Positions 3 to 35,006 of a DNA stretch of 64,000 nucleotides are shown in pieces. Location of the stretch: positions 224,088 through 288,087 of the forward strand of contig CAXWPJ010000006.1 of assembly GCA_963664115.2 (NCBI GenBank), read 5' to 3'. The DNA is from Terriglobia bacterium (GTDB taxonomy: Bacteria > Acidobacteriota > Terriglobia > 20CM-2-55-15). A program made the position numbers and the translations under genes. A model generated the notes under the pieces. It saw only the letters and a program-made list of their open reading frames with translations. It searched no databases and was not told the DNA's origin. Within the stretch, counting starts at the first letter, position 1. Every line of letters starts with the position of its first letter.

Positions 3-977
3 GGCCAGGATACAACCTTCCCCTCGTTGGAGTTTGCAACCGAGGATCATTCCAGTCACCTGGGCAGTTGCGCGGGAGACTTCCTGTGTTCTTACATGAG
101 CACAGTGTCCTGGCGGACGCCCACCCAGCCGCTCCCGATGGAGATCAACCCGCGTGTCGTGTTCGAGACGATGTTCGGGGGTTCCGAGTCCACTCCTGAA
201 GCGCGGCAGGCGCGATTGATTCAGAGCACCAGTATCTTGGATACGGTTGCTGAGAGCATCAGCGATCTGCGGCGGGATCTGGGCGCTGGCGATCAGGCTA
301 AGCTCGCCGAATATCTGGAAAACGTCCGCGAGATCGAGCGGCGAATTGTCCAGGGCGAACGGCAGCGCAGCGAAGCGAACCTGGAAGCACCGCCGACTCC
401 GGTCGGTGTGCCCGAGAACTGGGAAGAACACGTCGACCTGTTGTGGGAACTGGGCGCTCTGGCTTACCAGGGAGACCTCACTCGTGTCATCACTTTCATG
501 ATGTCTGCTGAGTTGAGCACACGCAGCTACCCGCAGATCGGTGTCGCTGATGGGCATCACCCGATATCCCACAACAACTTCGTTCCGGAACAGATGGCTA
601 AGAAGGCCAAGGTCGATGCTTACCATGTGCAACGGGTCGCGAAATTCCTGGCGCGATTGGAGTCCATTCCGGCCGGCGACGGGACGTCGCTCCTGGACAA
701 CTTCACATTGCTGTATGGAAGCGGCATGAGCAACTCCAATGCCCATGATCACGTCAACCTGCCGGTATTTGTTGTCAGCGGTAAGCTGGGCGGCAATCGC
801 CACATCAAGGCGGGCGTTGAAGCTGAAACGCGGGACAACGAGCTTGTGCCGAAGTTCAGCACGATGACAAAGATGTCGAATCTCCATCTCGCGCTCATTC
901 AGAGCTCGGGTTCTGAAATGGAATCCTACGGCATTGGTGAGCAAGAGAGCGATGGGGTATTCGATTTCTCCGTCTAG
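3..977 (+). CDS. DUF1552 domain-containing protein, C-terminal part (5' end outside the window)
   Basis: The frame is open from the first bases of the window (GQDTTFPSLEFATED...), so the listed ATG at 27 is probably internal. The motif GVADGHHPISHNNF and the overall sequence resemble the DUF1552 family. Stop TAG at 975-977. Confidence 0.8.
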   Translation, partial: GQDTTFPSLEFATEDHSSHLGSCAGDFLCSYMSTVSWRTPTQPLPMEINPRVVFETMFGGSESTPEARQARLIQSTSILDTVAESISDLRRDLGAGDQAKLAEYLENVREIERRIVQGERQRSEANLEAPPTPVGVPENWEEHVDLLWELGALAYQGDLTRVITFMMSAELSTRSYPQIGVADGHHPISHNNFVPEQMAKKAKVDAYHVQRVAKFLARLESIPAGDGTSLLDNFTLLYGSGMSNSNAHDHVNLPVFVVSGKLGGNRHIKAGVEAETRDNELVPKFSTMTKMSNLHLALIQSSGSEMESYGIGEQESDGVFDFSV

Positions 978-2912: not shown

Positions 2913-2950
2913 TAGATATTTTTTAAGGGGTAGTGAGGAGGTATTCGAGT

Positions 2951-4372
2951 ATGCGTGTCCGACAAGTGTTAGGGCTGTTGCTGGTAACGGCGCTCACAGT
3001 CACCAGCGCGACAGCCCAAATCCGGAGTAGCAACGTTGATCTTGTCCGAGCGGTTAAGGATCAGGATATGGCGACCGCCCGTGAACTAATCGCGGCGGGT
3101 GCCGACGTGACCGAACAGGACAGTGAAACGATGACGGCTCTCCACTGGGCGGCACACTGGAATGATCTGGAGATGGTGGAACTTCTTCTCAGTGAAGGTG
3201 CCGCGGCAGAGGTGAGCAACCGTTACGGTGTGACGCCACTTCACGAAGCAAGTCTCGTCGCCAACCCAGAGCTGATCCAGGTGCTCCTCCGGGCGGGTGC
3301 GCAGGCGAACACGGGCTTCGGTACCGGTGAAACTCCGGTTATGACCGCGGCTCGAACCGGTAACGTAGAGGCCGTACGCATCTTGTTGACGAATGGTGGC
3401 GGGGTAGACACTAGCGAAGAGTGGCGTGGGCAGACGCCGCTCATGTATGCGGCCAGCGAAGGCCATGCCGAGATGGTGGCATTCCTGATCGAAGAGGGTG
3501 CCAACGTCGATCAGCTTTCCAGACTGATCGAGTTCGAAGAACTGGTGAGCGGCAACGGCGGCGCCGAAGTGAATCGGCCTCCAGGCGGCTTATCATCACT
3601 GTTTTACGCAGCGCGTAGCGGTGCGGATGCGGCCGGTGCAGTCTTGATCGCGGCAGGCGCAGATATGGACGTTCAGGAAACGCTGTACGGATTATCCCCG
3701 CTGGAGGCGGCCATCATCAATGGCCACTGGGATTTCGCAGCGATGTTGATCGAGGCCGGTGCCGACGTGGACAATGGCGCTCTCTACACGGCAATTGAAT
3801 CGCGCAATACACCGGCGTACACGAATCGACCGGCGCCTCCTAGACAGGACGTGAACTACGATTCTACGGACGTGATCGAAATGCTGCTGGCAGCGGGAGC
3901 CGACCCCAGTCGCGTTCACGACCAGACTGAGATGCCCGAACGTCAGGCGCAGGGAAGAGTCAACGTTCTGGCAGGTTCGAGGCCTTTGTATAGAGCGATG
4001 CTGTCCTCCGACATCGAGGGGATAGAGTTACTTCTGGCTCACGGCGCGAATGCTTCCGCAGGAGCCCGCGACGGTTCCACTCCTTTGATGATCGCAGCCG
4101 GAATGAGAGCCCGCGGTCGTTATGACAATGCTCTGGGACCGCAAGCTCCTGAGAGACTTGGCCTGGTGAAGTTGTTGCTTTCCAACGGCGCGAGTCTTGA
4201 TGCAGCTCAAGGCCGGAGCGGTGACACTGCGGCGCACTACGCGGCTCGGGCGGGTAACGAGCATCTGCTGGACTATCTGGCAGCGATGGGCGCCGACGTG
4301 AACCTGGCAAACGAGGAAGAGCAGACTCCGCGTGCTCTGCTCGCGACTCGCCTGGCTCGCTTAGACCCTTAG
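2951..4372 (+). CDS. Secreted ankyrin-repeat protein
   Basis: Multiple ankyrin repeats (TALHWAAHWNDLEMVELLLSEGA, TPLHEAS..., TPLMYAASEGHAEMVAFLIEEGAN, etc.). N-terminal signal peptide MRVRQVLGLLLVTALTVTSATAQ. The ATG at 2951 is preferred over the listed GTG at 2933 because AGGAGG lies 9 nt upstream. Confidence 0.9.
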   Translation: MRVRQVLGLLLVTALTVTSATAQIRSSNVDLVRAVKDQDMATARELIAAGADVTEQDSETMTALHWAAHWNDLEMVELLLSEGAAAEVSNRYGVTPLHEASLVANPELIQVLLRAGAQANTGFGTGETPVMTAARTGNVEAVRILLTNGGGVDTSEEWRGQTPLMYAASEGHAEMVAFLIEEGANVDQLSRLIEFEELVSGNGGAEVNRPPGGLSSLFYAARSGADAAGAVLIAAGADMDVQETLYGLSPLEAAIINGHWDFAAMLIEAGADVDNGALYTAIESRNTPAYTNRPAPPRQDVNYDSTDVIEMLLAAGADPSRVHDQTEMPERQAQGRVNVLAGSRPLYRAMLSSDIEGIELLLAHGANASAGARDGSTPLMIAAGMRARGRYDNALGPQAPERLGLVKLLLSNGASLDAAQGRSGDTAAHYAARAGNEHLLDYLAAMGADVNLANEEEQTPRALLATRLARLDP

Positions 4373-4693: not shown

Positions 4694-6078
4694 GAGTTAT
4701 AACCGAATCTGGTGTTTGAGGGATTGAATAAGAGCGGCGTATCTGGTTGATTTGTTGTGACAAAACTTCAAAGCAACCATAGGAGATACGCCACTGTGAG
4801 CAAGAGTAACGTGAATGGACCGGAAGGTCGAGAAACGATTGAGGATCCAGTAACAGAACTACTACGAGTTGGGGCACAGCAACTGATCCAACGCGCAGTG
4901 GAAGCCGAATTGGCAGAGCTGCTATCCCAGCACGGTGGCCGGCGAACTGAGACAGGAAACGCCGGGGTGGTACGCAACGGTTATCTGCCGGAACGCGAAC
5001 TGCAGACGGGATTGGGTCCGGTAACAGTCCAAATCCCGAAGGTCCGTGCCAAGACGGGCGAAGCTGTGACGTTCCGATCGGCCCTGGTACCACCGTACAT
5101 TCGGAAGACGAAGTCGCTGGAAGCAGCGGTGCCGTGGTTGTATTTGAAAGGCGTTTCCAGCGGCGAGATGGGTGAGGCCCTAAAAGTTCTTGTCGGTCCC
5201 CAGGCGCAGGGTCTGTCGGCGAGCACGGTATCGCGGTTGAAACAGGTTTGGGGCGAACAGTACCGCCTCGGATGCGAGGAGCGTTTGGATGCAGATCGCT
5301 GGGTCTATGTCTGGGCCGACGGCATCTACAGCGGACTTCGGGCGGAACAAACCAAGTTGTGTGCATTGGTCGTGATCGGCGTGAATGAACGCGGAGAGAA
5401 GCGTTTCCTGGCGATCGAAGACGGTGTACGGGAATCGACACAGAGTTGGCGCGAGGTCTTGTTGAAGCTGAAGTCCCGTGGGATGAATGTTCCGAAGTTG
5501 GCCATCGGTGACGGTGCGATGGGGTTCTGGGCCGCACTGGAGGAAATCTATCCCGAGACACGTCAACAACGTTGCTGGATGCACAAAGTCATGAACGTCC
5601 TCAACTGCCTGCCCAAGTCGGTCCAGGCGAAGGCGAAACAGGCCCTGCACTCGATCTGGCAGGCCGAGACGAAGGCAGACGCCGAGAAGGCATTCGACTT
5701 GTTCATTGAAACCTATGAACCGAAGTATCCGAAAGCCACACTCTGCCTGCAGAAAGACAGAGAGGAACTGCTGGCCTTTTACGACTTTCCGGCCAAGCAC
5801 TGGCAGAGCATCAGAACGACGAATCCCATTGAGTCGACCTTTGCCACCATTCGACACCGAACGAAGCGATCCAGAGGTTGCCTGACACGGGATGGCATGC
5901 TGCACATGATGTTCAAACTGGGCCAGTGCGCTGAGAACAATTGGCGACGATTACGAGGATTCGATGATCTGAGCAAGGTAATCATCGGAGTGAAATTCAA
6001 CGATGGTGTCGAAGCGACACAAGTCGATCAGGCCGCCGCTTGAATCAATCTCCTAAACACCACTTTTGACAATAACTC
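4694..6078 (+). mobile_element. IS256-family insertion sequence, intact, with 9 bp target-site duplication
   Basis: Left end GAGTTATAACCGAATCTGGTGTTTGAGGGATTGA versus the reverse complement of the right end GAGTTATTGTCAAAAGTGGTGTTTAGGAGATTGA (25/34 identical by eye). Perfect direct repeat TCGTTTCGG at 4685-4693 and 6079-6087. Length 1385 bp. Confidence 0.9.
4757..6043 (+). CDS. IS256-family (Mutator-type) transposase
   Basis: 428 aa. Typical IS256 blocks are present: ELLRVGAQQLIQRAVEAELAELL, RNGYLPERELQTGLGPVTVQIPKVR, WADGIY, QRCWMHKVMNVLN, IRTTNPIESTF. Confidence 0.95.
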   Translation: MTKLQSNHRRYATVSKSNVNGPEGRETIEDPVTELLRVGAQQLIQRAVEAELAELLSQHGGRRTETGNAGVVRNGYLPERELQTGLGPVTVQIPKVRAKTGEAVTFRSALVPPYIRKTKSLEAAVPWLYLKGVSSGEMGEALKVLVGPQAQGLSASTVSRLKQVWGEQYRLGCEERLDADRWVYVWADGIYSGLRAEQTKLCALVVIGVNERGEKRFLAIEDGVRESTQSWREVLLKLKSRGMNVPKLAIGDGAMGFWAALEEIYPETRQQRCWMHKVMNVLNCLPKSVQAKAKQALHSIWQAETKADAEKAFDLFIETYEPKYPKATLCLQKDREELLAFYDFPAKHWQSIRTTNPIESTFATIRHRTKRSRGCLTRDGMLHMMFKLGQCAENNWRRLRGFDDLSKVIIGVKFNDGVEATQVDQAAA

Positions 6079-6087
6079 TCGTTTCGG

Positions 6088-6385
6088 TTTCAGGGGTCGA
6101 AGCTTCGACGCTGCAACCAGCGGCGATCTCAGGGAGAAAGCTGCAAGAAGGGACAGCTCCGGATGCTGAGGCCTTGAGGCGAGGTCAGCAAATTGTGGAA
6201 AGTGCATATGCCATGAGTTGGATCTGGTGGAAAGCGAGCGGTTGAGCCGGGAGGACTGAGGATACATCATACAGGCGATGCTGGTGAACGGTTCCGATCT
6301 GTCGGAACGTGAAATGCCTCTGGTCCTGGACTACTTGTCGACGGCCTTTCCTGCGCGGCCTGCGGCCGCACCTGAAGAGGATTGA
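6088..6385 (+). pseudogene. Decayed cytochrome-c-like gene, downstream part (upstream part is about 4605-4693, separated by the IS256 insertion)
   Basis: Removing the IS and one TSD copy joins a hydrophobic N-terminal stretch (..VLAIVSVSG..) to ..APDAEALRRGQQIVES.. (frame 3). The sequence continues in frame 2 as ..CGKCICHELDLVESERLSRED-TGA-GYIIQAMLVNGSDLSEREMPLVLDYLSTAFP. This needs a frameshift near 6195-6205 and read-through of an in-frame TGA (6257-6259) where such domains usually have Trp. The haem motif is degenerate. Confidence 0.35.
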
Positions 6386-6480
6386 ATGAGAGAACGCCCG
6401 CCGAGGAGCTGAAACTGGACTCGCTCTGCCGGGAATCCCTCGTAAGGCAGAATGGTGATGTCGAAAGGAGGGTAGTAAAA

Positions 6481-6873
6481 ATGAGACTGTCATCGGCATT
6501 TGCGCTGGCGGCGGTGCTTCTGACAATGGCAACGCTGCCATCCGGTGTGCCGCTTGCCGCGGCGCATCATTCTCAAGCCGCGGCGTTCCATATGGATCAA
6601 TGGGTGGAAATTGAAGGGATTGTCCAGCGCTGGCTCTTCAGGAATCCACATCCCGTTCTTTACCTGGAAGTCATCGGAGAGAACGACGAACCCGTCACGT
6701 GGCAGATCGAGTTTGCCCCGGCGACCGTCCTGGCAAAGATGGGCTGGGACACCGAGACGTTTTTGCCGGGACAGGACATTGCCGCAAGAGGACACCCATC
6801 ACGCGCTCAGGGCACCTATGGCATGGCGGCTGGCGCTGAAATTACACGCGAAGATGGCAATCGGGTCCGCTGA
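6481..6873 (+). CDS. Small secreted protein, His-His mature N-terminus family (copy 1); possibly the Pfam DUF6152 family (from memory)
   Basis: ATG at 6481 preceded by AGGAGG. Signal peptide ends ..PLAAA, then HHSQAAAF. The core WVEIEGIVQRWLFRNPHPVLYL ... IEFAPATVLAKMGW ... PGQDIAARGHP is shared with the genes at 7893, 34519 and 37611. Confidence 0.85.
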   Translation: MRLSSAFALAAVLLTMATLPSGVPLAAAHHSQAAAFHMDQWVEIEGIVQRWLFRNPHPVLYLEVIGENDEPVTWQIEFAPATVLAKMGWDTETFLPGQDIAARGHPSRAQGTYGMAAGAEITREDGNRVR

Positions 6874-6982
6874 TTGAGAAACTACAACGAGCCCTCTTTG
6901 GCAGCCCTTGAGACTTCTGCCACGGGCTGTTAGGCCTTGGGTTCCGTCCGAATTTTTCGATCCCATAGGGAGTTTCAAGAAT

Positions 6983-7837
6983 ATGAACTGCACGAGGGAA
7001 GGGTTGCTGCGACAAAGAGTTCGAACCGCGTTGGGATTTTCGATTTTCGCCCTGCTTCTGCTGGGTTGTATGCCGATCCAGCTGTCGGCACAGCTGCCCG
7101 ACGCGTCCAACGGAGTGCCGGATCTGACCGGAATCTGGTCGAGAGGTAGAAATAACTGTACGCCTAATGGCGTGACCTGCCCCTTCATCTTCAGCGAAAT
7201 TCCACTGAAAGCGCGTGCGATAGGATTCATGGCCGCGTGGGACGAGGCCGCGGGACCCAAGTACGATTGTGTGCCGGCGACGTCACCGTCTGTTGTGGCG
7301 GACCCGTATTCCATTCAGATCGAGCAACAGATAGACCGCGTCATCTTCACTTACGAGAAGGACGACATCATTCGGACAGTCTGGCTGGAGGGTCACGGAC
7401 ACCCGGACCCGCAACCCTACGACTTTACAGTGCAGGGATACTCGACCGGCCGATATGAGGACGGAAACCTTGTCGTTGAGACGACGAAGTTCACCTTCGA
7501 TCCGCACGGGCTGGACGACATGGCGAACGTGCCATCCTCCACGTTGAAGCGCGTCGTTGAAAGTTCCTCCACGTTGAAGTGCGTCGTTGAAAGTTATTCG
7601 TCGGATGGAGAAAACATGAGGGCGGAGGTGGTGACAGAAGATCCCGTCTTTCTAAACGGGCCGATCCAGTTTGCCATTGAGTGGGTTCCCCAGGACGAAC
7701 CCTTGATACTTCCATATGCCTGCCTGCCAGAACTGGCGAGACAGCCGGCGCAGTTTATTCCTTCAAAATACGAAGATCCGGACATGTTCAGGGTGCGCCT
7801 TCCCGCTGCATTTCCACCGGCTGGAGAGCCCGAGTGA
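6983..7837 (+). CDS. Secreted partner protein of unknown function (copy 1)
   Basis: Signal peptide ..LLGCMPIQLSAQ. Collinear motifs DLTGIW, RTVWLEGHGHP, GYSTGRYEDGNLVVETTKF, EDPVFL and PYAC are shared with the genes at 35322 and 38128. ATG at 6983 is preferred to the listed TTG at 6908. Confidence 0.8.
   Translation: MNCTREGLLRQRVRTALGFSIFALLLLGCMPIQLSAQLPDASNGVPDLTGIWSRGRNNCTPNGVTCPFIFSEIPLKARAIGFMAAWDEAAGPKYDCVPATSPSVVADPYSIQIEQQIDRVIFTYEKDDIIRTVWLEGHGHPDPQPYDFTVQGYSTGRYEDGNLVVETTKFTFDPHGLDDMANVPSSTLKRVVESSSTLKCVVESYSSDGENMRAEVVTEDPVFLNGPIQFAIEWVPQDEPLILPYACLPELARQPAQFIPSKYEDPDMFRVRLPAAFPPAGEPE
7535..7594 (+). repeat. In-frame 30 bp tandem duplication inside the CDS 6983-7837
   Basis: TCCTCCACGTTGAAGCGCGTCGTTGAAAGT occurs twice in tandem (7535-7564 and 7565-7594) with one mismatch. 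It encodes SSTLKRVVES / SSTLKCVVES. Confidence 0.95.
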
Positions 7838-7892
7838 GTCAAACAGAGGGTCCTGATTCTCAAATGCTGGACTATAAAAAGAGGTTAATAGC

Positions 7893-8264
7893 ATGCGATA
7901 CTTTTTTCCCGGTCTGATTTTAACCGGCCTCTGTTTGTCAGCTCTTCCCGGGTTTGCCCACCACGCGACGACAGCCTTCTACCATCAGGATCAGTGGGTG
8001 GAGATCGAGGGTGTCGTCCAGCAGTGGCTCTTCAGGAATCCGCATCCCGTCCTTTACGTCCAGGCTCCTGACGCGGATGGAGAGATCCGGGTGTTTGAGA
8101 TCGGTTTCGCCCCGGCAACTGTGTTGGCAAAGCGAGGGTGGAGTACGGAAACCTTTCAGGAGGGCGATGTCATTCAAGCGAGAGGGCACCCGTCCAAGGC
8201 GCCAGGGACCTATGGGTTAAGTGGAGCGGCGATCCGTCGGGAGGATGGCACCGAAGTCCGTTAG
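7893..8264 (+). CDS. Small secreted protein, His-His mature N-terminus family (copy 2)
   Basis: Signal peptide ..LSALPGFA, then HHATTAFY. WVEIEGVVQQWLFRNPHPVLYV and FAPATVLAKRGW are closely related to copy 1 at both protein and DNA level. Confidence 0.85.
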   Translation: MRYFFPGLILTGLCLSALPGFAHHATTAFYHQDQWVEIEGVVQQWLFRNPHPVLYVQAPDADGEIRVFEIGFAPATVLAKRGWSTETFQEGDVIQARGHPSKAPGTYGLSGAAIRREDGTEVR

Positions 8265-8391
8265 AGGGCTCCTGGAGGTTGTCGAAAGTCATAGTCCTTA
8301 GGTCTTGCGCCAACCCGTGTAAGTTGAATAAAATTGGCTGTTTCGAATAGCTACATCTGCATATAAATCACAATTGGGTATAAGGAGATTT

Positions 8392-9411
8392 ATGACTCGA
8401 ATCAGTGGAGCCTCATTGCTGCTCGTTATAGTCGGGCTGATGGCTCAACCGGTAGAAGCCCGTCCGGAATTCTTCATGCAGTTCCAGAGTGATCCGTTTC
8501 GGAACGTGGAGCTGGATACCTGCGGGGTTTGTCACGAGAATCCGGGAGGCGGCGGTCCTCGAAACGAATTCGGTCTGACCTTCGCTGAGGCAGGATTCCA
8601 GATCACGCCGATGATGAGGGCGAATTATCCGGACCGATTCACGGTCACAACGTTGGAAACCGGAAACACACCCACGATCTCGGAACCGAACGTTGTCTCC
8701 AAAATTTACTTGTCGGACCCGGACAATGAATTGATGGTTGTCGAGTTTCTTGCGATAGACGAGGCCAACGCTTTGCTGGAACCCACAATGCAGGTCGTGA
8801 GTCTGTTGGGCGGTGCGGTCGGGGGGGAAGATGACCAGACGCCGGAGAATTCGATGAGCTTCTTCATTACCAGTACAGGTCCCGGCGATGGGGCCAACCT
8901 GGGCGGGTTGGCCGGCGCGGACGCGCATTGCCAGTCACTTGCGGACGCCGCAGGGCATGCAGACAAGACCTGGCGCGCATACCTCAGCACGAGCTTTGAT
9001 GGAGAGCCCGCCCTCAACGCAGGCGACCGCGTCGGCGGCGGCCCCTGGTATAACGCCAATGGGCTTCTCGTTGCGCAGGGCGTGCTCGACTTGCACAGTG
9101 ACGGGAACCGGCTTAGTAAAATGGGCTCTCTGAATGAAAGAGGAGAAGTCGTCAACGGCAGGGGAGACGATCCCAACCGCCACGATATCCTTACAGGAAC
9201 CCTGTTAAACGGTATGGCGGCAGTCGACATGAATTGCAGCAATTGGACCAGCAATGGTGAGGGCAGCGCTCTGCTGGGTCACCATGACCGCGAAGGTGGG
9301 GGGGACAATGGTAGTTCCTGGAATTCAGCCCATGCTTCGAGAAGTTGCAGTCAGGCCGACTTGCAGGCGACCGGCGGCGACGGCCTGTTCTACTGCTTCG
9401 CTATCGACTAA
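8392..9411 (+). CDS. Secreted protein with an N-terminal CxxCH motif and a C-terminal endostatin/DUF1554-like (C-type-lectin-fold) domain
   Basis: ATG at 8392 preceded by AAGGAG. Signal peptide ..MAQPVEA. CGVCH at 8521-8535 is followed by NPGGGGPRNEFG. The C-terminal ~185 aa (FFITSTGPG..GGLAGADAHCQ..TWRAYLS..CSNWTS..LFYCFAID) resembles the collagen XV/XVIII endostatin sequence as I remember it. Confidence 0.8.
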   Translation: MTRISGASLLLVIVGLMAQPVEARPEFFMQFQSDPFRNVELDTCGVCHENPGGGGPRNEFGLTFAEAGFQITPMMRANYPDRFTVTTLETGNTPTISEPNVVSKIYLSDPDNELMVVEFLAIDEANALLEPTMQVVSLLGGAVGGEDDQTPENSMSFFITSTGPGDGANLGGLAGADAHCQSLADAAGHADKTWRAYLSTSFDGEPALNAGDRVGGGPWYNANGLLVAQGVLDLHSDGNRLSKMGSLNERGEVVNGRGDDPNRHDILTGTLLNGMAAVDMNCSNWTSNGEGSALLGHHDREGGGDNGSSWNSAHASRSCSQADLQATGGDGLFYCFAID

Positions 9412-9444
9412 GCCGCTGACTCTCTGCGACAGTATTTTCTCGAA

Positions 9445-9486
9445 GAAGGTCCCTGGCCGTTGGGCAAGGGACCTTCTGTTGTTTGT
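9445..9486 (+). terminator. Rho-independent terminator-like hairpin
   Basis: GAAGGTCCCT ... AGGGACCTTC stem with a 12 nt loop, followed by the T-rich TGTTGTTTGT. Confidence 0.6.
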
Positions 9487-9558
9487 GGCTGGCGCTACGA
9501 GCCGAGTGCTCTGGGTCTGGTACGATTCCGAGACCGTGCATTGTGGATTCGATTTGAA

Positions 9559-9594
9559 GTCTCAAGATTGGTCTCAAGATTGGTTTCAAGAATG
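9559..9594. repeat. Three tandem 12-mers just upstream of the monooxygenase start
   Basis: GTCTCAAGATTG, GTCTCAAGATTG, GTTTCAAGAATG (two perfect copies and one 10/12). The array ends 11 nt before the TTG start at 9606. Confidence 0.9.
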
Positions 9595-9605
9595 AAGGTG
9601 ACGCT

Positions 9606-10691
9606 TTGAAATTTGGATATTTCACCTTAAGCGACAACGCGTACCCGAATAATCCCCGTTCACCTGAACAGTTCATTACAGAGATTCGGGAGCAAGCGAT
9701 CTACGCCGACCAATTGGGTATGCACTCGGCATGGATTGGAGAGCATCACTTCGATTCTCTTGGAGTCAATTCGCGTCCGGGTACCTTGCTGGCCAGCATT
9801 GTCCCGGTAACGAAGAATATCCGGCTCGCGCCTGCGGTTGCCGTACTCCCATTGCACCACCCTCTCGATGTTGCGGAAGAATGGGCCACGATCGATTTGA
9901 TTTCCGGTGGTCGCGTGGACTTCGCGGCGGGCCGCGGCTACGACAGGCGGGAGTATGATCCCTTCGGGGCTCCGTTTATGGAGTCCGCAGAAATATTTTC
10001 CGAGTCCATCGATGTCATTCTGAAAGCCTGGAACTCACCCGGCCCCTGGTCGCACGAAGGAAAATACTTCCAGATACCGGAGATGCAGATCACGCCGCAC
10101 CCGCTTCAGAAACCGATTCCTTTCTTCATCGCGAGCTTCTCTGAAACCAGTGTTGATATTGCTGCCAAACGGGGCCTGAACATCATCTACGCACCGTTTG
10201 CCGCGGGGATGGTATTCGGAGGTCTCGACCGGGCCGTAGATATATATCGGGAAAAATGCGCGAGTCACGACCGCACCGCGGGGCGGACCTTGTGCAGCTA
10301 CTTTGTCCACTTCGCGGACACACCCGAAGAGGAAGAGTTTGGACGGCAGGCTCAGATGTCATACTTCAAGAACTGCGCCTTGCCTGCTTTCCCGAAGAAT
10401 CCCGCGAAAATGCCGCCCACAATGCAGTACTTCATGAAGATCTGCGACATCCTCGAGAACATGCAGAAGGAAGACCTGACGGACAAATCGATTCTCATCG
10501 GTCCATCTTCGAAGGCCATCGAAACTCTTAAACGAGTCGAAGCTGCGGGAATTACCGAGGTCATCCTTTATTTCAACGTCGGCAATAAACCCCACCAGTT
10601 GGTAAAGGAGCAAATGGCCAAGTTTATGGAAGAGGTTGCGCCCGCGTTCGAGGGGGGGACGGACACTTCAGAGTTCGGGATAAATCCCTGA
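9606..10691 (+). CDS. LLM-class (luciferase-like) flavin-dependent oxidoreductase
   Basis: 361 aa. MKFGYFTLSDN...AIYADQLGMHSAWIGEHHF and the overall layout are typical of luciferase-like monooxygenases. The last 12 codons (GGTDTSEFGINP) are encoded by the palindromic element at 10655-10725. Confidence 0.9.
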   Translation: MKFGYFTLSDNAYPNNPRSPEQFITEIREQAIYADQLGMHSAWIGEHHFDSLGVNSRPGTLLASIVPVTKNIRLAPAVAVLPLHHPLDVAEEWATIDLISGGRVDFAAGRGYDRREYDPFGAPFMESAEIFSESIDVILKAWNSPGPWSHEGKYFQIPEMQITPHPLQKPIPFFIASFSETSVDIAAKRGLNIIYAPFAAGMVFGGLDRAVDIYREKCASHDRTAGRTLCSYFVHFADTPEEEEFGRQAQMSYFKNCALPAFPKNPAKMPPTMQYFMKICDILENMQKEDLTDKSILIGPSSKAIETLKRVEAAGITEVILYFNVGNKPHQLVKEQMAKFMEEVAPAFEGGTDTSEFGINP

Positions 10692-10725
10692 TACTCCAGG
10701 ATCGATTTCTGAAGTGTCCGTCCCC
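10655..10725. repeat. Palindromic element copy E1 (arms GGGGACGGACACTTC / GAAGTGTCCGTCCCC, 41 nt loop)
   Basis: Perfect 15 bp inverted arms at 10655-10669 and 10711-10725. It lies between convergent genes. The left arm and part of the loop fall inside the 3' end of CDS 9606-10691. Confidence 0.95.
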
Positions 10726-11612
10726 TTAGTCGATGGCGAAACAGTAGAACAATCCGTCGCCGCCGGTCGCCTGCAGGTTTTCCTGGCTGCATCCCCTGGA
10801 CGGGTGGGCCGCGTTCCACTGATCGCGATCATGGTGGCCCAGCATCGCCTGACCTTCCTCACCGCCGTTGGTCCAGCTTTCACACGTTAACGAATACCCT
10901 GCGTCGGCCATGTTCAGCAGGTCCAGCAATTCCCACGGCCACGCAGTACCATTCGGGCGTGAACCGGTGAGGATGTCGTGGCGGTTGACCTCATCTCCGC
11001 CGCCGCTGACGATTTCACCGCGCTCGTTTAACGCTGTCTCCTTCCTGAGGTTATTGCTGCTCGAATGCAGTTGCTCGATATTGTTGGAGATCATGATGCC
11101 CCGAGCGTTGTACCAGGGGCCCGGGCCAATCCGGTCACGCGCGTCCACAGGTTCCGTCTCACTGGTGATGCTCAGGTACGCCCGCCACGTTTTGTTTCCT
11201 GCGCCCACGCCTTCCGTAAGCAACTGGCAGTGTCCGTCCGCACCTGACAGTCCCCCAGATCACCGCCCCTTCCGGGACCATTGCTGGTCAGGAAAAAGCT
11301 GAAGTTCTGAGGAAGATCTCCCAGACTCTGGGTGCCAGGGGCTGATTCTGTGGCCGCGCTGAGGAACATGTCGGGATACTCCTGGCGCAGTGCAGGAGTT
11401 ATTGAATATCCCGCGATCTCGAAACCGCGACCAAAGACGTTGCGGGGTCCGCCGCCTCCAGGATCCTGATGGCAGACGCTGCAACCATCGATCCCGGGAC
11501 GCCGCATCGGATCGGCCAGATAGTCATCGAGGAACTCAGGAAATGCCGAGGCGGGAAGCGAGATCGATCCAAGTAAGAGTAGCAACATGAACATTCGATT
11601 TGTCCCAATCAT
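10726..11612 (-). pseudogene. Frameshifted paralogue of 8392-9411 (CxxCH + endostatin/DUF1554-like domain)
   Basis: The two listed ORFs (11172-11612 and 10726-11223) together are collinear with the 8392-9411 protein: signal peptide, CSVCH at 11469-11483, ..FFLTSNGPGRGGDLG then, in another frame, GLSGADGHCQLLTEGVGAGNKTWRAYLS...LFYCFAID. One extra G in the 5-G run (C-run 11252-11256 on the plus strand) would restore the frame. Confidence 0.8.
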
Positions 11613-11857
11613 TGAGTCCCTTTCGTTAAGTAATAATTCCGTGAGGGCTTCTAAAGGCGTAGTTTACGCCGCCTTTCGGAGTTGAGGCAACCGTCGGTCA
11701 CGCCCTTCAAATGGTTACTATCGACAGACTCCACTGTCCTTGTGATTGAATCATCCCTTCACGATTCCGTTATTGGATTTGCCGTATAGATCGTGCAGGA
11801 TAGCTTCAGATGCAGACGCCTGCCCAGTTTGTGACCAATCTGAAGGAGATTCGGCGG

Positions 11858-12979
11858 ATGAAAGGATTAGTCCTTTCGATTGCGTTGATAATGACCGCAT
11901 GGGTGCAATTCGGGCACACTGAACCCCAGACCCGCCAGCTGCCTCCACCCGGACTGCCCACCCCTGTGGCAGATGTGGCGGACCCTGTCACGAACATCAA
12001 AACACGACTTATCGAAGCCGCCACTCGGGGAGAAACTGCAGAGGTCGGGCAACTTCTTGAAGAAGGGGCCGACGTGAATACGATGAATCCCAGTGGTTTC
12101 ACCCTACTCCTTCTGACTGGTCTCGAAGGCCACGTCGATACGATGCGGCTACTGGCCGAGGCTGGTGCTGATCTGGAGGTCCGGGATGGCAACGGTGCGA
12201 CGGCGCTGATTCCACTGGTTGCCGAGGGCCGGATCGATTCACTCAGGGCATTGCTCGAGCTCGGGGCTGATGTCGATGCCGCTGATGACAACGGTGCGAC
12301 GGCTCTGATGGTGGCAGGTTTCCACGGTCTCTACGAAGTCGTTAAAGTCCTGCTCGCCGCTGGCGCCAGTGTCGATTCTGAAGACTTCAATGGGGCGACG
12401 CCGTTGTTGTGGGCGGCCTCGCGAGGCGAACAGCGCACAATCGAGCTCCTTCTCGACGGCGGATCCGATGTCAACCGGAAGGATGTCAACGGATGGACCG
12501 CATCCATGGTTGCGGCGATTCAGGGTCGCATCCAGGCTGTGGGGGTTCTGATTGATCGCGGCGCGGACCTGAGTATCCGAAACAACGGAGGGGGCACGGC
12601 GTTGATGGGGGCAGCCCTGGCAGGTCATGCCGATGTCCTCCAGATACTCCTGGATGCGGGGGGCGACGTCAACGCGGCTGACGCAGATGGTATTACAGCG
12701 TTGATGTGGGCTGCGTCGGAGGGACACATCGACGGTTTTGACAGACTGCTCCGTGGGGGTGCAGACGTCAACGCGGTTGCGGTTGATGGAGGGACGGCCT
12801 TGGTGATGACTGCATCCGGGGGGCATGCGGAAGTGGCTCGGCGCCTCCTCGATTCCGGAGCCGCCGTCGATTCCCGAACCACTAATGGGGGTGAGGCCCT
12901 TGCGGCGGCTCTGGCCGGTGGTTACACGGAGATTGTGGTCATGTTGCGGAGGGCCGGAGCCCGCCAACCCGCACGATAG
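11858..12979 (+). CDS. Secreted ankyrin-repeat protein
   Basis: ATG at 11858 preceded by AAGGAG. Signal peptide MKGLVLSIALIMTAWVQFG. About nine consecutive ankyrin repeats (NGATALM.AA..GH..VV..LL.AGA.V). Confidence 0.9.
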   Translation: MKGLVLSIALIMTAWVQFGHTEPQTRQLPPPGLPTPVADVADPVTNIKTRLIEAATRGETAEVGQLLEEGADVNTMNPSGFTLLLLTGLEGHVDTMRLLAEAGADLEVRDGNGATALIPLVAEGRIDSLRALLELGADVDAADDNGATALMVAGFHGLYEVVKVLLAAGASVDSEDFNGATPLLWAASRGEQRTIELLLDGGSDVNRKDVNGWTASMVAAIQGRIQAVGVLIDRGADLSIRNNGGGTALMGAALAGHADVLQILLDAGGDVNAADADGITALMWAASEGHIDGFDRLLRGGADVNAVAVDGGTALVMTASGGHAEVARRLLDSGAAVDSRTTNGGEALAAALAGGYTEIVVMLRRAGARQPAR

Positions 12980-13068: not shown

Positions 13069-14973
13069 ATGAGTATCCGATGGACGACGACCCTGGCCCT
13101 GGCAGCCGTGCTGATGGCCCCGGAAACCGGCATGGGCCGTGCGCAAAACACTGATTGGCCGATGTACAACCATGACCTGTACGGTACGCGCCATTCGCCG
13201 TTGAGCGAAATCAACACGGACAACGTCGGGGACCTCGCCCAGGCTTGGTCTTTCAATATAGGTCGGCTTGCCAGCTCGGGAGGTCTCACCGGAGGCTCTG
13301 AGGCGACACCCATCGTCGTAGACGGCGTGATGTTCCTGCCACTTGCCGATGCTGTCATTGCCCTGGACGCGGCGACAGGGGAGGAGATCTGGAAGTATCA
13401 GATGTCGATCGATGACCCGCCTTCCCGGCGCGGCGTTTCATACTGGGCGGGAAATAGCGACACTGCCGCACGGATCTACGTCACCTCAGGCCGCCAGCTC
13501 ATCGGGTTGAGCGCCTTCACCGGTGAGCCTACCGCGAATTTCGGTGACGGTGGCATTGTGGACATGGTCCAGGCTTACAACGGCGTACCCGCTGTATTTG
13601 AAAACCTGCTGCTCGTGGGGACCAACGGCGTTCCAGGTGCCGTCCGCACCATTGATGCTGTCACGGGAGACTTGGTTTGGGAGTTCCGTTCGGTTCCACA
13701 ACCCGGTGAGTTTGGAAACGACACATGGGAAGGAGACAGTTGGATGGACCGGACAGGCACCTACAGTTGGGCCTTTGCTCCGACCATGGACCCGGAACGC
13801 GGAATCTATTACGCAGTATTTGAGACCGCAGGGCCGATTGACTACTGGGGTGGAGACCGCATCGGCGACAACCTGTTTGCAGGTTCGATCGTTGCGCTGG
13901 ACATTCGAACGGGCGAAAGGCTGTGGCACTACCAGACCGTGCATCATGATCTCTGGGATTATGACCTGCCATCTTCGCCCACGTTGTTGGATGTGAACGT
14001 GGACGGAGAAATTGTTCCCGTCCTCGCGCAGACCGCTAAGACTGGTTACATGTACATTCTGAATCGTGTCACGGGAGAACCTGTCTTCGGGATTGAAGAA
14101 GTTCCCATGCCCCCGACCTCGGTTCCCGAAGATCAGGCTTCACTGACCCAACCGGTCCCGGTGAAACCGCCACCACTGGCTCGAGTGAGTTACAGTCCCG
14201 AAGACCTGGTGACGGCTGAGGACACCAATGCTGAACATGCCGCTTTCTGTGCGGAGTTGGTGGAGCGTAGCGGAGGCTTCTACAACGCCGGCCCGTTTAC
14301 GCCCTATGTGTTCCGTGAAGAAGGTGCGCCTCCTTATTCTACGGTTATCTTCCCCGGATCAGTGGGGGGCGCGAACTGGGGTGGAAACACGGCCGATCCG
14401 ACCTTGGGCTATGTCATCGTTAACACGATGAGCGAAGGCAGCTTTGGTTGGATCGAGAGAAGCCCTGAAGGCGAGCGCGTGCCCTACCGGCGGAACAGCA
14501 TTGTCGGACGGACTTCGCGCTTCCAGTGGTCCGACAACACGCCGGACTCGGGTGGGAACATCGTCGGAGCCGGTGAGATGGGGTGGCCCTGCCAGAAACC
14601 ACCCTGGGGTGAGTTGGTGGCTGTCGACGCTAACACGGGTGACATCGCCTGGAGGGTTCCTCTCGGCATCACGGAGGAACTTCCCCTCGAAAAGCAGCAG
14701 ACGGGACGCCTGAATTTCGGGGGCCCGATATCCACGGCCGGGGGTCTGGTGTTCATAGGCGCCAGCAATGACCGGCGCTTCCGCGCGTTCGATACCCGAA
14801 CGGGTGAAGAACTCTGGACCCAAGTTCTGGTGATGAGTGCCCACTCAGTTCCAATTTCCTATGCCGTTGACGGCAAGCAGTACGTGGCTGTTGTGGCGGG
14901 CGGCCAGCGCGGCGACGTCGACGACCCCGGCCCGGAAGGCGCCGAGGCCGTCGTTGTTTTTGCCCTGCCATAG
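13069..14973 (+). CDS. PQQ-dependent dehydrogenase (quinoprotein, beta-propeller), secreted
   Basis: 634 aa with a signal peptide. DWPMYNHDLYGTRHSPLSEI, repeated W-containing propeller motifs and HHDLWDYDLPS are typical of the glucose/quinate-type PQQ dehydrogenase family. Confidence 0.85.
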   Translation: MSIRWTTTLALAAVLMAPETGMGRAQNTDWPMYNHDLYGTRHSPLSEINTDNVGDLAQAWSFNIGRLASSGGLTGGSEATPIVVDGVMFLPLADAVIALDAATGEEIWKYQMSIDDPPSRRGVSYWAGNSDTAARIYVTSGRQLIGLSAFTGEPTANFGDGGIVDMVQAYNGVPAVFENLLLVGTNGVPGAVRTIDAVTGDLVWEFRSVPQPGEFGNDTWEGDSWMDRTGTYSWAFAPTMDPERGIYYAVFETAGPIDYWGGDRIGDNLFAGSIVALDIRTGERLWHYQTVHHDLWDYDLPSSPTLLDVNVDGEIVPVLAQTAKTGYMYILNRVTGEPVFGIEEVPMPPTSVPEDQASLTQPVPVKPPPLARVSYSPEDLVTAEDTNAEHAAFCAELVERSGGFYNAGPFTPYVFREEGAPPYSTVIFPGSVGGANWGGNTADPTLGYVIVNTMSEGSFGWIERSPEGERVPYRRNSIVGRTSRFQWSDNTPDSGGNIVGAGEMGWPCQKPPWGELVAVDANTGDIAWRVPLGITEELPLEKQQTGRLNFGGPISTAGGLVFIGASNDRRFRAFDTRTGEELWTQVLVMSAHSVPISYAVDGKQYVAVVAGGQRGDVDDPGPEGAEAVVVFALP

Positions 14974-27965: not shown

Positions 27966-28662
27966 CCGGCATGCTCGTCCGACTGAGACATTCAACGCAG
28001 ACGCTTCGGACGAACACCAACTCATCTGATTTGATGGACGGAAAGGGAAGCATCAACCCGGAGAATAAGGATCATGATGTGACCAAGGGGATTGGCATTT
28101 ATTGGGGCCCGTCCGGGTCGGGCGCCATCACTGCCATCGACGGGGAACTTGAATTCTTCCACCTCGTTGTCCAGCAGATACCGGGGTAGACGTCCATTTC
28201 CTGAGCGTTACGCCCCTACCCTTAAAGGCGAGCGGTTTGAAGCGGCCTGCGGACCCTGCCGGCTGCCTACCCCCATCTATGGTTTCTCCTAGCTTATTTC
28301 TCAAGAGGAGCCCTGCATTTTAATGACACTGTAAATTGTTATTTTCAAGATGTTTGCGGCGTTATTTGGCTAGTTTTATTGGGGTCGGAAGGTCAGGAAT
28401 CAAAGCAGGCACACCCATTGGAGCGGGCGCTCATCGAGCGCGCCTTCCGAATGCAGATCGCGATGGATTTTGAAAGGTGCTTCCACCACTCTTTCATCTC
28501 CAAATGGCCTGCTTAAGAGAGGCTAAGAGTCCCGGAAAGTAGAGGTTGACTCGCCCATTGCGGCGGTATAGCATTTCGCACTAAGTCTCGTCTCCTCACT
28601 GATAATGGGGGAGTTACGAGTGATTGAACCTTTTTCGTGTGTTTCGAGTGGAGGAAAACTCT

Positions 28663-31600
28663 ATGAAGCGACTAGTTACATGTCTTCTGGGTGTGGTCTT
28701 GATGACCGCGCTTGTATCCGTGCCAATGTTTGCGCAGGGTACAGCCCAGATTACAGGAACCATTTCAGACGCCACCGGCGCATTGTTGCCGGGCGTCGAT
28801 GTGTCTGTGACGAACACCGCGACGGGCGTGACCCGTGCGGTGGTCAGTAACGAAACCGGAGCCTATTCGTTGCAGAGCCTTCCGATTGGTGCCTACCAGT
28901 TGGAGGTGAGCTTGCCGGGCTTCCAGACCTTCGTGCAGACCGGCGTTTTGGCAGTCAATGACTCGGCCAATATCAATGTGAGCTTGCAGGTTGGCCAGGT
29001 GGCGCAGACCATCGAGGTTCAGGCCAATGCAGCCCTCGTTGAGACTCGTACGGTGGGTGTCGGCGAGCTCATTGAAAGCGCACGAATTCTGGAACTGCCC
29101 TTGAACGGCCGGAACGTGACCGAGTTGATCGTGCTCTCAGGTGCCGCGGTGTCGACGGGGACGTCGTCTTCGCGGAGCATGCCGGGGCAGCAGGAGATTT
29201 CGGTTGCGGGCAGCCAGCAGGGCGCTGTGGCCTACCTGTTGGACGGGGCACCCCACAACAACTGGTACGACAATCTGGCATTGCCGCTGCCGTTCCCGGA
29301 TGCGCTGGGTGAGTTCAAGATCGAAACCAGTGCGCTGCAGGCCCAGCAGGGACTGCGCTCGGGCGCGAACGTCAACGCCGTCACGCGCTCTGGAACGAAC
29401 GAGTTTCACGGCAACCTGTTCTGGTTCGTAAGGAATGACTTGTTCGGTGCCCGCGAGTATGGCGCCGCACGCAACAGTACGCTGAAGAGGAACCAGTACG
29501 GCGGGACCATCGGCGGACCGATCGCCCAGAACAAGCTGTTCTTCTTTACCGGCTACCAGGCCACGATCCAGCGGCGGGATCCCGGGACCACGGAACGTTA
29601 CCTTCCGACGCCCTATGCATTATCCACAGGCGACTGGAGCAAGATGTTGGACCCAGGATGCAGACCGCCGACTTCGAGTCTGTCCTCGACGCTCGAAAAT
29701 AGCACGACGGCGTCCGGCTATACCGGTGGCAACAAGATCGATCCGGCCTTGTACAGCCCGGTCGCGATGAATCTCATGAGTCGACTGCCGACCAACCTGA
29801 CCGACGACTGTGGCCGTCTCCTGTTCGGCAACATTTTGCAGGACAACGACTGGCAGTTGGTCAGCCGCGTGGACTATCAGATGTCCGATTCCCACTCCAT
29901 CCTGGGTCGTGTTCTGGTCACAACCGCGGATCGACCCAACCCGTATTCGATATCGGGCAATCCGCTGGCCAGCACCGTTGCTGGCTGGGATGACATGGCG
30001 CAGTCCATCACGTTGGGTGACACCTGGCTGATCAACCCGACAACGGTGTTGTCGACGCGTCTGGCGGTCAACTACAGCGAAATTTTACGTCTGGGCGCGG
30101 AATTCTTCAGCTGGGTCGATCTGGGCGTCAACAACTACTACACGTATCCCGACGTGGAGAAGTTCTTACGGATGGGCGCGGATGACGGCTTCTCGCTGGG
30201 CGGTTGTACGACCAATCCGGCGCCGTTTAAGACGTTCTCGGCCAGCATCAATTCCGACCTGAGTCTGTCCCGCGGCGACCACCAGTGGGGTTTGGGCGGA
30301 TATTTCAATCGGCTGGACTCCAACGGATACGCCAACTGTAACTCGGCCGGGAACTTCGACTTTGAAGGGAACCACACCGGCTGGGGCCTGGCCGACTTGA
30401 TGATCGGTCAGACGAATGACTTCACGCAGGCGACGCCGAACACGGCGCTGTCGAAGAAGTGGGTCGGCGCACTATATGTGGCCGACACCTGGCGCCTGAC
30501 GCCCAATGTGACGATGAGTTACGGCGTGCGTTGGGAGCCCGATTATCCCGAGACGATCACGAACGACCGCATCGTCAAGTTCTCCCGGGCTGCCTTTGAT
30601 GCCGGGACCAAGAGCTCGGTGTTCGTGAATGCGCCTGCGGGTATGTCCTTCGTGGGCGACTCCGGATTCCAGGGCACGAGCGGCCGGGACACGTTCGTTG
30701 CGAATTTCGCACCGCGGGTCGGTCTGGCATGGGACCTGTTCGGCGATGGCCGGACTTCGATCCGTGCATCCGGCGGGATCGGTTATGACTATCCCGACGG
30801 GCAGTTCCATCTGTGGACCTCCCTGACGCCGCCGTTCGGCGCGGACGTGAGGATTCCGAATGCGACCCTGGCCGATCCCTGGGCGACATTCCCCGGTGGG
30901 CGGACCCATCCGGTGAACACCACCGATCCCAACATCGGGTTCCCGCGGTTCCCGCGCATGTCGGCGATAGGAGATAACCTCCGGTCGTCGCAGACACAGA
31001 ACTGGAACCTGGCCCTGCAGCAGCAGGTCGGGGGCGACTGGCTGATGTCGACGACGTACATGGGCAGCCACACCATCAACATGGCGGGGGCCACCCAGAT
31101 GAACCCGGCGATTTACTTCCCGGGTGCGCCGGTGGACGGAGCGTGTACGGTCAGCCATTCCGGGGGGGTTATGATCCCGGCCGGAACTTACACGCTGAAC
31201 ACAGGCGGAGGCAGTTGCTCCACGAACGGCAATGTCAACAATCGGCGGATCCTGTCCCTGGTGGACGCCGCTAACGGACTCAATTATGGAGCTCTTGGCC
31301 TCACGCACAGCGGCGGGACGTCCAGCTACAACGGGCTGCTCGTCAGCATGCAGCGGCGCGCCGCTACAGGCATCAATATCAACACCAACTACACGTGGTC
31401 TCACTGCATCTCTCCGTATCACGATGATGGATTTGGCGGGACGGGTTTCAATGGAGACAACGTGTATCACGACCCGGACAACCGGGGCCGCAGCCGCGGG
31501 AACTGCCAGCAGGACCGGCGTCACAACTTCACGTTCACGACCATCGCCCGCTCGCCTGAGTTTGCCAATGCCGGCCTCCGGGCGGTCGCTTCGGACTGGG

Positions 31601-32043: not shown

Positions 32044-32066
32044 CTTAGAGTTACAAACAGTCATCG

Positions 32067-32097
32067 AGCGGCGGGGGCCCAGCCTCCGCCGCTTTTT
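32067..32097 (+). terminator. Rho-independent terminator of the TonB receptor gene
   Basis: AGCGGCGGGGG ... CCTCCGCCGCT stem followed by TTTTT. Confidence 0.75.
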
Positions 32098-32110
32098 CGT
32101 GGGCTGGAAA

Positions 32111-32173
32111 GGGACGGACACTTCCGTTGACATTTGGGCCTTATTGCGGTGTTTCGACTGAAGTGTCCGTCCC
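32111..32173. repeat. Palindromic element copy E2
   Basis: GGGACGGACACTTC (32111-32124) and GAAGTGTCCGTCCC (32160-32173) with a 35 nt loop CGTTGACATTTGGGCCTTATTGCGGTGTTTCGACT. Confidence 0.95.
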
Positions 32174-32325
32174 ACCCAAGAGCTCACGCGACGTTCCCCG
32201 GTGGGGGTGGCACAGTGTCGCCGAATCGCGCTAATATACGAGTGTGCTCCGAGTCGGCGCCTTCATAAAATTGCTATCCTTTCGGGAACTTATAATTCAG
32301 CAAAGAGTGGTCAGGAGAGTGTGAA

Positions 32326-33189: not shown

Positions 33190-33242
33190 TGAAAACAGGA
33201 CACTTGTCAGCGGGACCTCTACGTGTCGGAGGGGTGTAAAAC

Positions 33243-34328: not shown

Positions 34329-34518
34329 CGGTCATTCGAACCCTACCGTGTTCCGGCCTTACCTTCAGGGCCACTCGTGTAACGAGTTCGAATCACCTCA
34401 CGACTCTTGAATGTCGGATGTCATGGGACTAGGCTTAATTCAGCGGCACACGACACCGCCACTTCGTGTGCGGAGTCAATAGAGTCACAGGGACAGTCTC
34501 TGATTTGAGGGGGAACTC

Positions 34519-34914: not shown

Positions 34915-34957
34915 AGCTAAGCTTCACCCCTGCTGATCCCAGCAAAACGAAGACCAT

Positions 34958-35006
34958 AGGGCACGGTGTCCGCGTATTCGAGGATGCCGTGCCCTTACGC
35001 CGTTTT
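34958..35006 (+). terminator. Terminator-like hairpin after 34519-34914
   Basis: AGGGCACGG ... CCGTGCCCT (9 bp stem, ~20 nt loop) followed by ..CGTTTT. Confidence 0.4.

Follow-up and report, generated by a model that had tools for sequence, protein, structure and literature searches.

Endostatin, a much-studied fragment of the animal matrix, is the C-terminal part of the NC1 region of collagens XVIII and XV (PF06482; PDB 1BNL, 1KOE and 1DY0–1DY2). In its crystal structures the domain carries two nested disulfides, C33–C173 and C135–C165, and in the human protein an N-terminal zinc site is formed by H1, H3, H11 and D76. To our knowledge, the fold has been known in bacteria only from the Len adhesins of Leptospira and from the loosely defined family DUF1554. 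The Len proteins (LenA–F; DUF1554) are outer-membrane lipoproteins of Leptospira interrogans that bind laminin, fibronectin and factor H (PMC2063517) and, together with Pfam DUF1554, they represent the bacterial endostatin-like proteins described so far; a literature search found nothing linking endostatin to bacteria other than Leptospira. Here we analyse a 64,000-nucleotide stretch of DNA (the window) from a Terriglobia bacterium (Acidobacteriota; contig CAXWPJ010000006.1, positions 224,088–288,087), in which a forward-strand gene at 8392..9411, the target, encodes a protein with a signal peptide, an N-terminal domain (N-domain) bearing a CxxCH motif and a C-terminal domain (C-domain; 8857–9408). 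The C-domain is truly, if remotely, homologous to the endostatin domain of collagens XV/XVIII and to bacterial DUF1554. The endostatin-like subfamily that contains it is very large, without annotation and tightly conserved, and has a candidate site of its own. The C-domain is linked by gene fusion to DUF6152 and to an unnamed domain, X, whose genes sit directly upstream in the window, and is joined in the target to a rare N-terminal partner domain that has no solved fold.

A remote bacterial homologue of endostatin

The mechanical open reading frame (8374..9411, forward strand) starts at TTG 8374, and its translation agrees with the protein quoted in the initial annotation of the window. ATG 8392 is the likely true start because AGGAG lies 6 nt 5′ of it and the closest homologue (P0001) has 339 aa; homologues with 87–92% identity are equal in length to the target. 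Residues are nevertheless numbered here from TTG 8374, and 8857–9408 corresponds to S162–D345, D345 being the final codon ahead of the stop. Cleavage of the signal peptide is predicted after VEA29 (...MAQPVEA/RPE), and a helix occupies this region (residues 6–23) in the AlphaFold2 model. On inspection the signal peptide has no lipobox Cys, and therefore no lipoprotein signal. The parts of the gene, all on the forward strand, are as follows.

8392..9411, forward: two-domain secreted protein gene, 339 aa from ATG 8392 (mechanical open reading frame from TTG 8374)
8392..8460, forward: Sec-type signal peptide (MTRISGASLLLVIVGLMAQPVEA, followed by RPE), read from the sequence, with a putative cleavage site
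8461..8814, forward: N-terminal domain, aa 30–147, from alignment, AlphaFold2 and HMMER
8521..8535, forward: CxxCH motif C50-G-V-C53-H54, a candidate covalent haem-c attachment site, from conservation
8815..8856, forward: acidic low-confidence linker joining the two domains (predicted local distance difference test score, pLDDT, below 50 at residues 148–156; length variable in the alignment)
8857..9408, forward: endostatin-like (DUF1554-related) C-terminal domain, aa 162–345, from profiles, hhalign and Foldseek
8929..8931, forward: Cys186, aligned with endostatin Cys33, invariant in 65/65 family sequences
9235–9237, 9346–9348 and 9394–9396, forward: the other Cys residues invariant in 65/65, C288, C325 and C341
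9181..9186, forward: His270-Asp271 (NRHDILTG), part of a family-specific His/Asp cluster
9094–9096, 9280–9288 and 9331–9333, forward: the remainder of that cluster, H241, H303-H304-D305 and H320

The initial annotation had proposed, from motifs seen by eye, that the C-domain resembles endostatin and DUF1554, and profile searches, hhalign and Foldseek all lead to one or other of these families and to nothing else credible. A family profile built from 65 relatives (alignment A1) ranked endostatins first among all PDB sequences (E = 3.5e-5 for mouse, 4.1e-5, 1.5e-3 for human and 0.036 for collagen XV), in alignments spanning ~125 residues; beyond the endostatins, this search returned just weak unrelated chains matching the N-terminal part of the profile. 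An hhalign comparison of A1 with human endostatin gave a probability of 88% and E = 2.8e-6. When the 65 relatives were scanned individually against Pfam, DUF1554 was matched by all of them at E ≤ 0.1 (best 2.3e-7) and was the best-scoring family for each, Endostatin was matched by 57 (E ≤ 0.1; best 2.7e-6), and no other C-domain family appeared; some relatives also have a precomputed PF07588 match. In a Foldseek search of PDB with the template-free AlphaFold2 model of the target (mean pLDDT 90.1), the top five matches, 1bnl, 1dy0, 1koe, 1dy1 and 1dy2, were all endostatin domains (E = 1e-6 to 5.6e-5, probability 1.00, target-normalized template modelling score 0.63–0.71), the sixth match fell to E = 0.15, and a Foldseek search of the model against viral structures gave no match. 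Significant matches were thus found at the level of both profile and structure, and the C-domain almost certainly adopts the compact, C-type-lectin-like fold of endostatin. Homology, fold and export signal are directly supported by these data.

The checks suggested in the initial annotation all favoured its proposal, with a qualification for the single protein. Alone, the target stays below both curated Pfam thresholds, with 22.1 bits against a cut-off of 27.5 for DUF1554 (PF07588; E = 1.4e-4, only aa 174–208 matched) and 11.7 bits against 29.4 for Endostatin (PF06482; E = 0.21); its scores with the NCBIfam Len models (LenA/B or LenF equivalogs) are 15.9 bits against 300 and 14.0 bits against 400. 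A single-sequence phmmer search of PDB with the target gave chance matches only, and the family profile was required. The subthreshold Pfam scores, the lack of a PDB relative by phmmer and an identity to endostatin of just 15–18% in the Foldseek alignments could be taken to mean that the resemblance is coincidental, produced by convergent motifs or an AlphaFold artefact in an unrelated domain. Four independent methods (profile against PDB, hhalign, Pfam scans of 65 relatives and Foldseek) nevertheless pick endostatin alone, and the first two conserved Cys align with endostatin Cys; coincidence is effectively refuted, and we attach a negligible probability to it.

The C-domain and endostatin share their fold and are nearly equal in size (184 versus 183 aa). 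Their N-terminal halves are colinear, with common motifs GxxGAD..C, T(W/F)RA(Y/F)LS, ADR and C.(T/N)W; the four correspondences first noticed by eye were recovered by HMMER and hhalign, including LGGLAGADxHCQ, TFRAFLS, ADR, and CSNWT against CETWRT. Each has four Cys in the same order. C186 and C288 of the target align with endostatin C33 and C135, and C325 and C341 match endostatin Cys by order only, the sequence alignment being ambiguous there. The C-domain is probably held by two disulfides, the pairing of which we infer.

The differences from endostatin are equally distinct. The zinc site has no counterpart, as residues 159–184 contain no His and D76 aligns with the conserved Gly230. The C-domain is acidic, with an isoelectric point (pI) of 4.70 (10 K+R, 22 D+E) against 9.30 for human endostatin, and the basic, Arg-rich heparin-binding surface of endostatin is therefore absent. 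The collagen context is also missing from this 339-aa bacterial open reading frame, which has no collagen repeat, NC1, trimerization domain or hinge, and the C-terminal loop region, which carries HHD...WNSAH, is 10–16 residues longer than that of endostatin. The Len proteins resemble the target in being bacterial, exported and endostatin-like; the target, by contrast, is not a lipoprotein, its host is a free-living acidobacterium rather than a pathogen, and it has the family-specific His/Asp cluster and other partners (the CxxCH domain, DUF6152 and X). Because the curated Pfam and NCBIfam thresholds are missed and the zinc site and basic surface are absent, we place the target in a sister subfamily within the endostatin/DUF1554 group, as a member of neither known family. 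Its relation to C-type lectins runs only through the endostatin branch: Pfam Lectin_C was not matched at E ≤ 1, and no canonical C-type lectin was among the Foldseek matches with E < 0.1. A parallel between DPN...WNS in the C-domain and EPN...WND, the Ca2+ motifs found in C-type lectins, was set aside, as the spacing differs.

A large subfamily with a conserved His/Asp cluster

In a word-index search, at least 8000 clusters (90% identity) match the target at E ≤ 1e-3. Most members have ~215 aa and consist of a Sec or lipoprotein signal and the endostatin-like domain alone, some of these short relatives carrying lipoboxes. Members are 60–73% identical to the target C-domain across phyla, with hosts in Acidobacteriota (including Vicinamibacterales), Rhodothermales, Balneolaceae, Gemmatimonadota and Alpha- and Gammaproteobacteria. 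Replicons of Sinorhizobium meliloti, S. fredii, S. medicae, Azospirillum and Roseomonas also encode the domain, as shown by tblastn; those of the records that are annotated list it as 'hypothetical protein'. The closest genome match is a Terriglobia metagenome-assembled genome with 92% amino-acid identity (L001; L and P numbers are our handles for loci and proteins). The S. meliloti member UIJ94052.1 (208 aa; L088, CP090106.1) has HSD instead of HHD; its replicon, CP090106.1, is labelled 'pSymB' and, at 3.72 Mb and with rpoD, looks like a mislabelled chromosome.

The four Cys are invariant in all 65 family sequences. Conservation of His and Asp was counted in an alignment of 191 C-domains, of which 159 have every one of H241, H270, D271, H303, H304, D305 and H320; 20 more differ by H304F only, and in about six degenerate members, P0038 and P0125 among them, several are missing at once. 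Endostatin lacks an equivalent of Asp271 or of HHD, and the His of its LRHP aligns with H270. This conservation pattern is directly observed. As the residues are conserved jointly and lost jointly, they suggest one functional site, which would most simply be a metal site.

Inside the strongly conserved NGRGDDPNRHD loop lies an RGD tripeptide (R263-G264-D265, 9160–9168) that most family members retain. Because the hosts are free-living, a structural role or a place in the putative site is more probable for it than a function as an integrin motif. The tripeptide nonetheless bears on whether the domain could, in the manner of the Leptospira Len proteins, bind matrix-type or surface polymers as a lectin or adhesin that is non-enzymatic and independent of metal. 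The conserved RGD would fit such a role, as would the C-type-lectin-like fold, the presence of lipoproteins in the family and the fact that the Len proteins, with their laminin, fibronectin and factor H binding, are the only bacterial endostatin-like proteins for which there are experimental data (PMC2063517). The hosts, however, are soil and marine bacteria, the high conservation across phyla is unlike that of fast-evolving adhesins, the domain is acidic and lacks the basic patch of endostatin, the NCBIfam Len models give 14–16 bits against cut-offs of 300–400, and the gene context is periplasmic and catabolic rather than one of surface or virulence functions. We consider an adhesin quite improbable and favour a site-bearing domain.

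Fusion and adjacency with DUF6152 and X

Three genes lie directly upstream of the target, in the order DUF6152, X, DUF6152.

6382–6873, forward: second DUF6152 copy (Pfam, E = 5.8e-20)
6908..7837, forward: gene for the unnamed domain X, 309 aa, no Pfam family, recognized by BLASTP against the middle of a fused gammaproteobacterial protein (L049) and by a jackhmmer map
7893..8264, forward: DUF6152 gene directly 5′ of the target (Pfam, E = 1.2e-17)

In four gammaproteobacterial loci (L036, L049, L053 and L055) the same components form a single open reading frame of 577–631 aa with the order signal, DUF6152, X, endostatin-like domain, sometimes in tandem copies. Pfam confirms DUF6152 in these fusions (E ~1e-20), and X from the window matches the L049 protein over 198 residues (BLASTP, E = 2e-14). 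A database search with the fused protein returned ~100 distinct clusters whose coverage of the query was 96% or more, with identity down to 46%, including Arenicella (under the NCBI name 'DUF6152 family protein') and Acidiferrobacterales; DUF6152–X proteins without the third domain were also found. The fused C-domains belong to the same endostatin-like subfamily as the target and retain the cluster as HD / H(F/H)D / H. They differ from it in being part of one polypeptide of about 540 aa that has no CxxCH domain, where the window has separate genes and a CxxCH module. The three genes also adjoin one another in L081–L083 and L001–L003, in another orientation than in the window.

Fusion in Gammaproteobacteria and adjacency in the window, both directly supported, constitute a classical Rosetta-stone signal that DUF6152, X and the endostatin-like domain act together, and it is from these that we infer physical cooperation of the target with DUF6152 and X. 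We give this link more weight than the association with the PSCyt/PSD–DUF1552–ankyrin cluster described below. PDB sequence searches with X and DUF6152 gave no match, and a literature search on DUF6152 found nothing. In the window genes at 7893–8264 and 6382–6873, and in L036, L049 and L053, the DUF6152 chain appears to start with HH after signal cleavage (...A/HHA...) and has a conserved NPH; an N-terminal His pair in a small exported beta protein suggests possible metal binding.

A second group of such genes lies at 34519–38006 on the forward strand, comprising DUF6152 (34519–34914), X (35322–36254), a metallo-beta-lactamase (36349–37485) and DUF6152 (37611–38006). Within the stretch 28624–38922 it follows a CarboxypepD_reg-type (TonB-type) outer-membrane barrel (28624–32043), an FAA hydrolase gene and a cupin gene and, because it contains no endostatin-like gene, it indicates that DUF6152–X pairs occur without that domain.

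The CxxCH domain, its setting and the proposed role

The architecture given in the initial annotation, with a signal peptide, a CxxCH-containing N-terminal region and an endostatin-like C-domain, is real and is kept in ~36 relatives. The N-domain consists of a short helical part with DPxR...CxxCH...GGGxRNxFGxAF...ITPxxR followed by a four-stranded beta part, and was modelled alone with a pLDDT of 93.2 (AlphaFold2). Its Cys pair is kept in all 36 full-length relatives and its His in 35. The domain is rare: an exhaustive HMMER search of 1.84 billion representatives (profile A2) found 176 proteins at E ≤ 1e-3. By itself, the N-domain retrieved nothing in a word-index search, which reflects the sensitivity limit of the tool and not absence, given the 176 proteins of the exhaustive search.

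Its nearest described relative is Temptin_C (PF24784), which concerns the N-domain only. The two have the motif (C..C)H....GGG.RN.FG.AF in common, but the target scores 15.8 bits against a threshold of 27, just ~30 residues are matched and nothing in Temptin_C corresponds to the beta part of the N-domain. Weak Temptin_C matches covering the CxxCH motif occur in 25 of the 65 scanned sequences, 36 of which carry the N-domain (best E = 0.0046). In two bacterial repeat proteins (P0210 and P0221), CxxCH...N.YG.AY units alternate with DSDGDG Ca-type motifs; these proteins match Temptin_C at ~1e-15 and the N-domain profile at 1e-8 and 1e-6. The temptin-like protein P0217 keeps H...GGG.RN.FG.AF without the two Cys. 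Besides the combination with the endostatin-like domain alone, the N-domain is found joined to a DUF5777 outer-membrane beta-barrel (P0127, P0133, P0144 and P0158). In P0125 it precedes a degenerate endostatin-like domain, and a cytochrome-c-like domain (Cytochrome_CBB3, E = 0.006) forms the C-terminus.

The other genes around the target are these.

27..977, forward: 3′ part of a DUF1552 (HXXSHH) gene, from a PSCyt/PSD–DUF1552–ankyrin cluster
1099–2631, forward: DDE transposase (DDE_Tnp_1_4; Pfam)
2933..4372, forward: secreted ankyrin-repeat protein (Pfam Ank; signal peptide visible)
4757–6043, forward: Mutator-type transposase
9606–10691, forward: LLM-class luciferase-like flavin monooxygenase, between the target and its paralogue, adjoining the target in L001–L003 too
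10726..11612, reverse: target paralogue (short CxxCH N-terminal part and endostatin-like domain), split by a 1-nt frameshift
11810–12979, forward: second secreted ankyrin-repeat protein (Pfam Ank; signal peptide visible)
13069–14973, forward: pyrroloquinoline quinone (PQQ)-dependent dehydrogenase, ~640 aa

Orthologues of the target in other Terriglobia and in Vicinamibacterales usually follow or adjoin a cluster of PSCyt/PSD (DUF1592-type, ~815 aa), DUF1552 (~457 aa) and ankyrin (~540 aa) genes. The window copy is interrupted by two insertion sequence elements (the transposases at 1099–2631 and 4757–6043), whereas in L001, compared by an open reading frame map made without Pfam, the cluster genes are consecutive, with only small unclassified open reading frames between them and no such large insertions. 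In the paralogue, the frameshift is a missing base in the five-G run at 11252–11256 that gives two open reading frames, and is explained either by recent loss of the gene's function or by an assembly error at the homopolymer; the paralogue has an insertion, WPWELLDLLNMADAG, and lacks the GGGDNGSS loop, and its orthologue in L003 is intact (8359–9246, minus strand, 295 aa). One ankyrin gene with a signal peptide pairs divergently with the frameshifted paralogue, and in most related genomes the target is preceded by an orthologous ankyrin gene. A promoter and terminator scan of 6100–11900 found nothing above shuffled expectation.

Elsewhere in the family, the fused gammaproteobacterial genes have as neighbours NmrA-like reductases, an SSF transporter, FAA hydrolases, SnoaL-like proteins, a TonB-dependent receptor and an amidohydrolase. 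A scan of 86 open reading frames flanking stand-alone C-domain genes showed no unifying theme, the commonest being NHL propellers (11) and PQQ dehydrogenases (5), and look-ups of single cases were no more informative. The gene setting is periplasmic, amid uptake and catabolic genes, and unspecific. A PQQ dehydrogenase with HHD(L/I)WDYD recurs within a few kilobases of endostatin-like genes (L046, L048, L054, L070, L001 and L034) in Terriglobia, Vicinamibacteraceae and Gemmatimonadota/Longimicrobiales, directly downstream and on the same strand in four loci; further genes of the Gemmatimonadota cluster encode a HupE/UreJ_2 protein, an NHL propeller, MMPL and redoxins. The Asp-x-Asp of the dehydrogenase motif raised the idea of a lanthanide/PQQ connection, which was dropped because the enzymes are only distantly related to characterized XoxF or ExaF. 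Such a motif is also present in Ca/Mg-dependent glucose dehydrogenases.

Covalent attachment of haem c at CxxCH may occur. Carried further, the N-domain could be a small mono-haem c-type cytochrome and the protein an electron-transfer or redox part of the PSCyt/PSD–DUF1552–ankyrin system, with the endostatin-like domain binding a substrate or partner. Retention of CxxCH in 35 of 36 relatives of an exported protein is consistent with this, as are the order PSD–DUF1552–Ank–target, or close variants of it, in most of 17 full-length loci (including the window and L081), the cytochrome-c-like domain appended to the same architecture in P0125 and the PQQ dehydrogenases that recur nearby. Nevertheless, the N-domain matches no cytochrome family in Pfam or NCBIfam and no cytochrome fold, a conserved distal Met or His ligand is not evident among the relatives, P0217 replaces CxxC yet keeps the His and GGGxRNxFG, and the large majority of endostatin-like members have no N-domain. 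The function of PSCyt/DUF1552 systems is itself not known (PMC5615132), and a literature search on DUF1552 and DUF1592 found nothing functional. We regard a redox role of this kind as unlikely.

We favour, with a confidence somewhat above even, an account in which the target acts as a Sec-exported, two-domain protein whose C-domain is stabilized by disulfides. The bacterial subfamily has lost the zinc site and basic heparin-binding surface of endostatin and gained its own His/Asp cluster (H241, H270-D271, H303-(H304)-D305 and H320). As judged from conservation in the alignments, this cluster may bind a metal and provide, in the periplasm or on the cell surface, a site for ligand binding or catalysis. 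The endostatin-like domain would act jointly with DUF6152 and X, the products of the genes immediately 5′ of the target, and the contribution of the CxxCH module in the acidobacterial lineage would be a haem c or metal centre, or a docking function.

Several observations weigh against this account. The C-domain matches no known metal-binding or enzyme family, and in 64 of 90 sources (89 loci and the window) it occurs by itself, without DUF6152 or X, in variable neighbourhoods. The neighbours are heterogeneous (catabolic enzymes, PQQ dehydrogenases, NHL propellers and TonB receptors) and indicate no specific substrate. One relative has CxxCQ in place of CxxCH, and a Foldseek search of PDB with the N-domain model gave a best E of 0.31, with no match to a solved fold and no cytochrome among the hits.

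The finding overturns nothing established. It identifies a separate bacterial endostatin-like branch, far larger and better conserved than those known before, that is present in several phyla and in model rhizobia, is missed by current Pfam and NCBIfam thresholds and appears in genome annotation as 'hypothetical'. The fusion ties this branch, with its candidate site, to DUF6152 and X, turning three orphan families into one testable system, and the presence of a family member in Sinorhizobium meliloti puts genetics and biochemistry within reach. The origin of the endostatin domain of animal collagens is a further question on which the finding bears. A bolder proposal, which we hold to be doubtful, is that the endostatin fold has a large, ancient, non-adhesin branch in bacteria, made up of 3-His/2-Asp periplasmic metalloproteins that would serve as the third component of a DUF6152–X system linked to TonB-dependent uptake and catabolic islands; this branch would then be the source of the collagen XV/XVIII endostatin domain, which would not be a metazoan invention.

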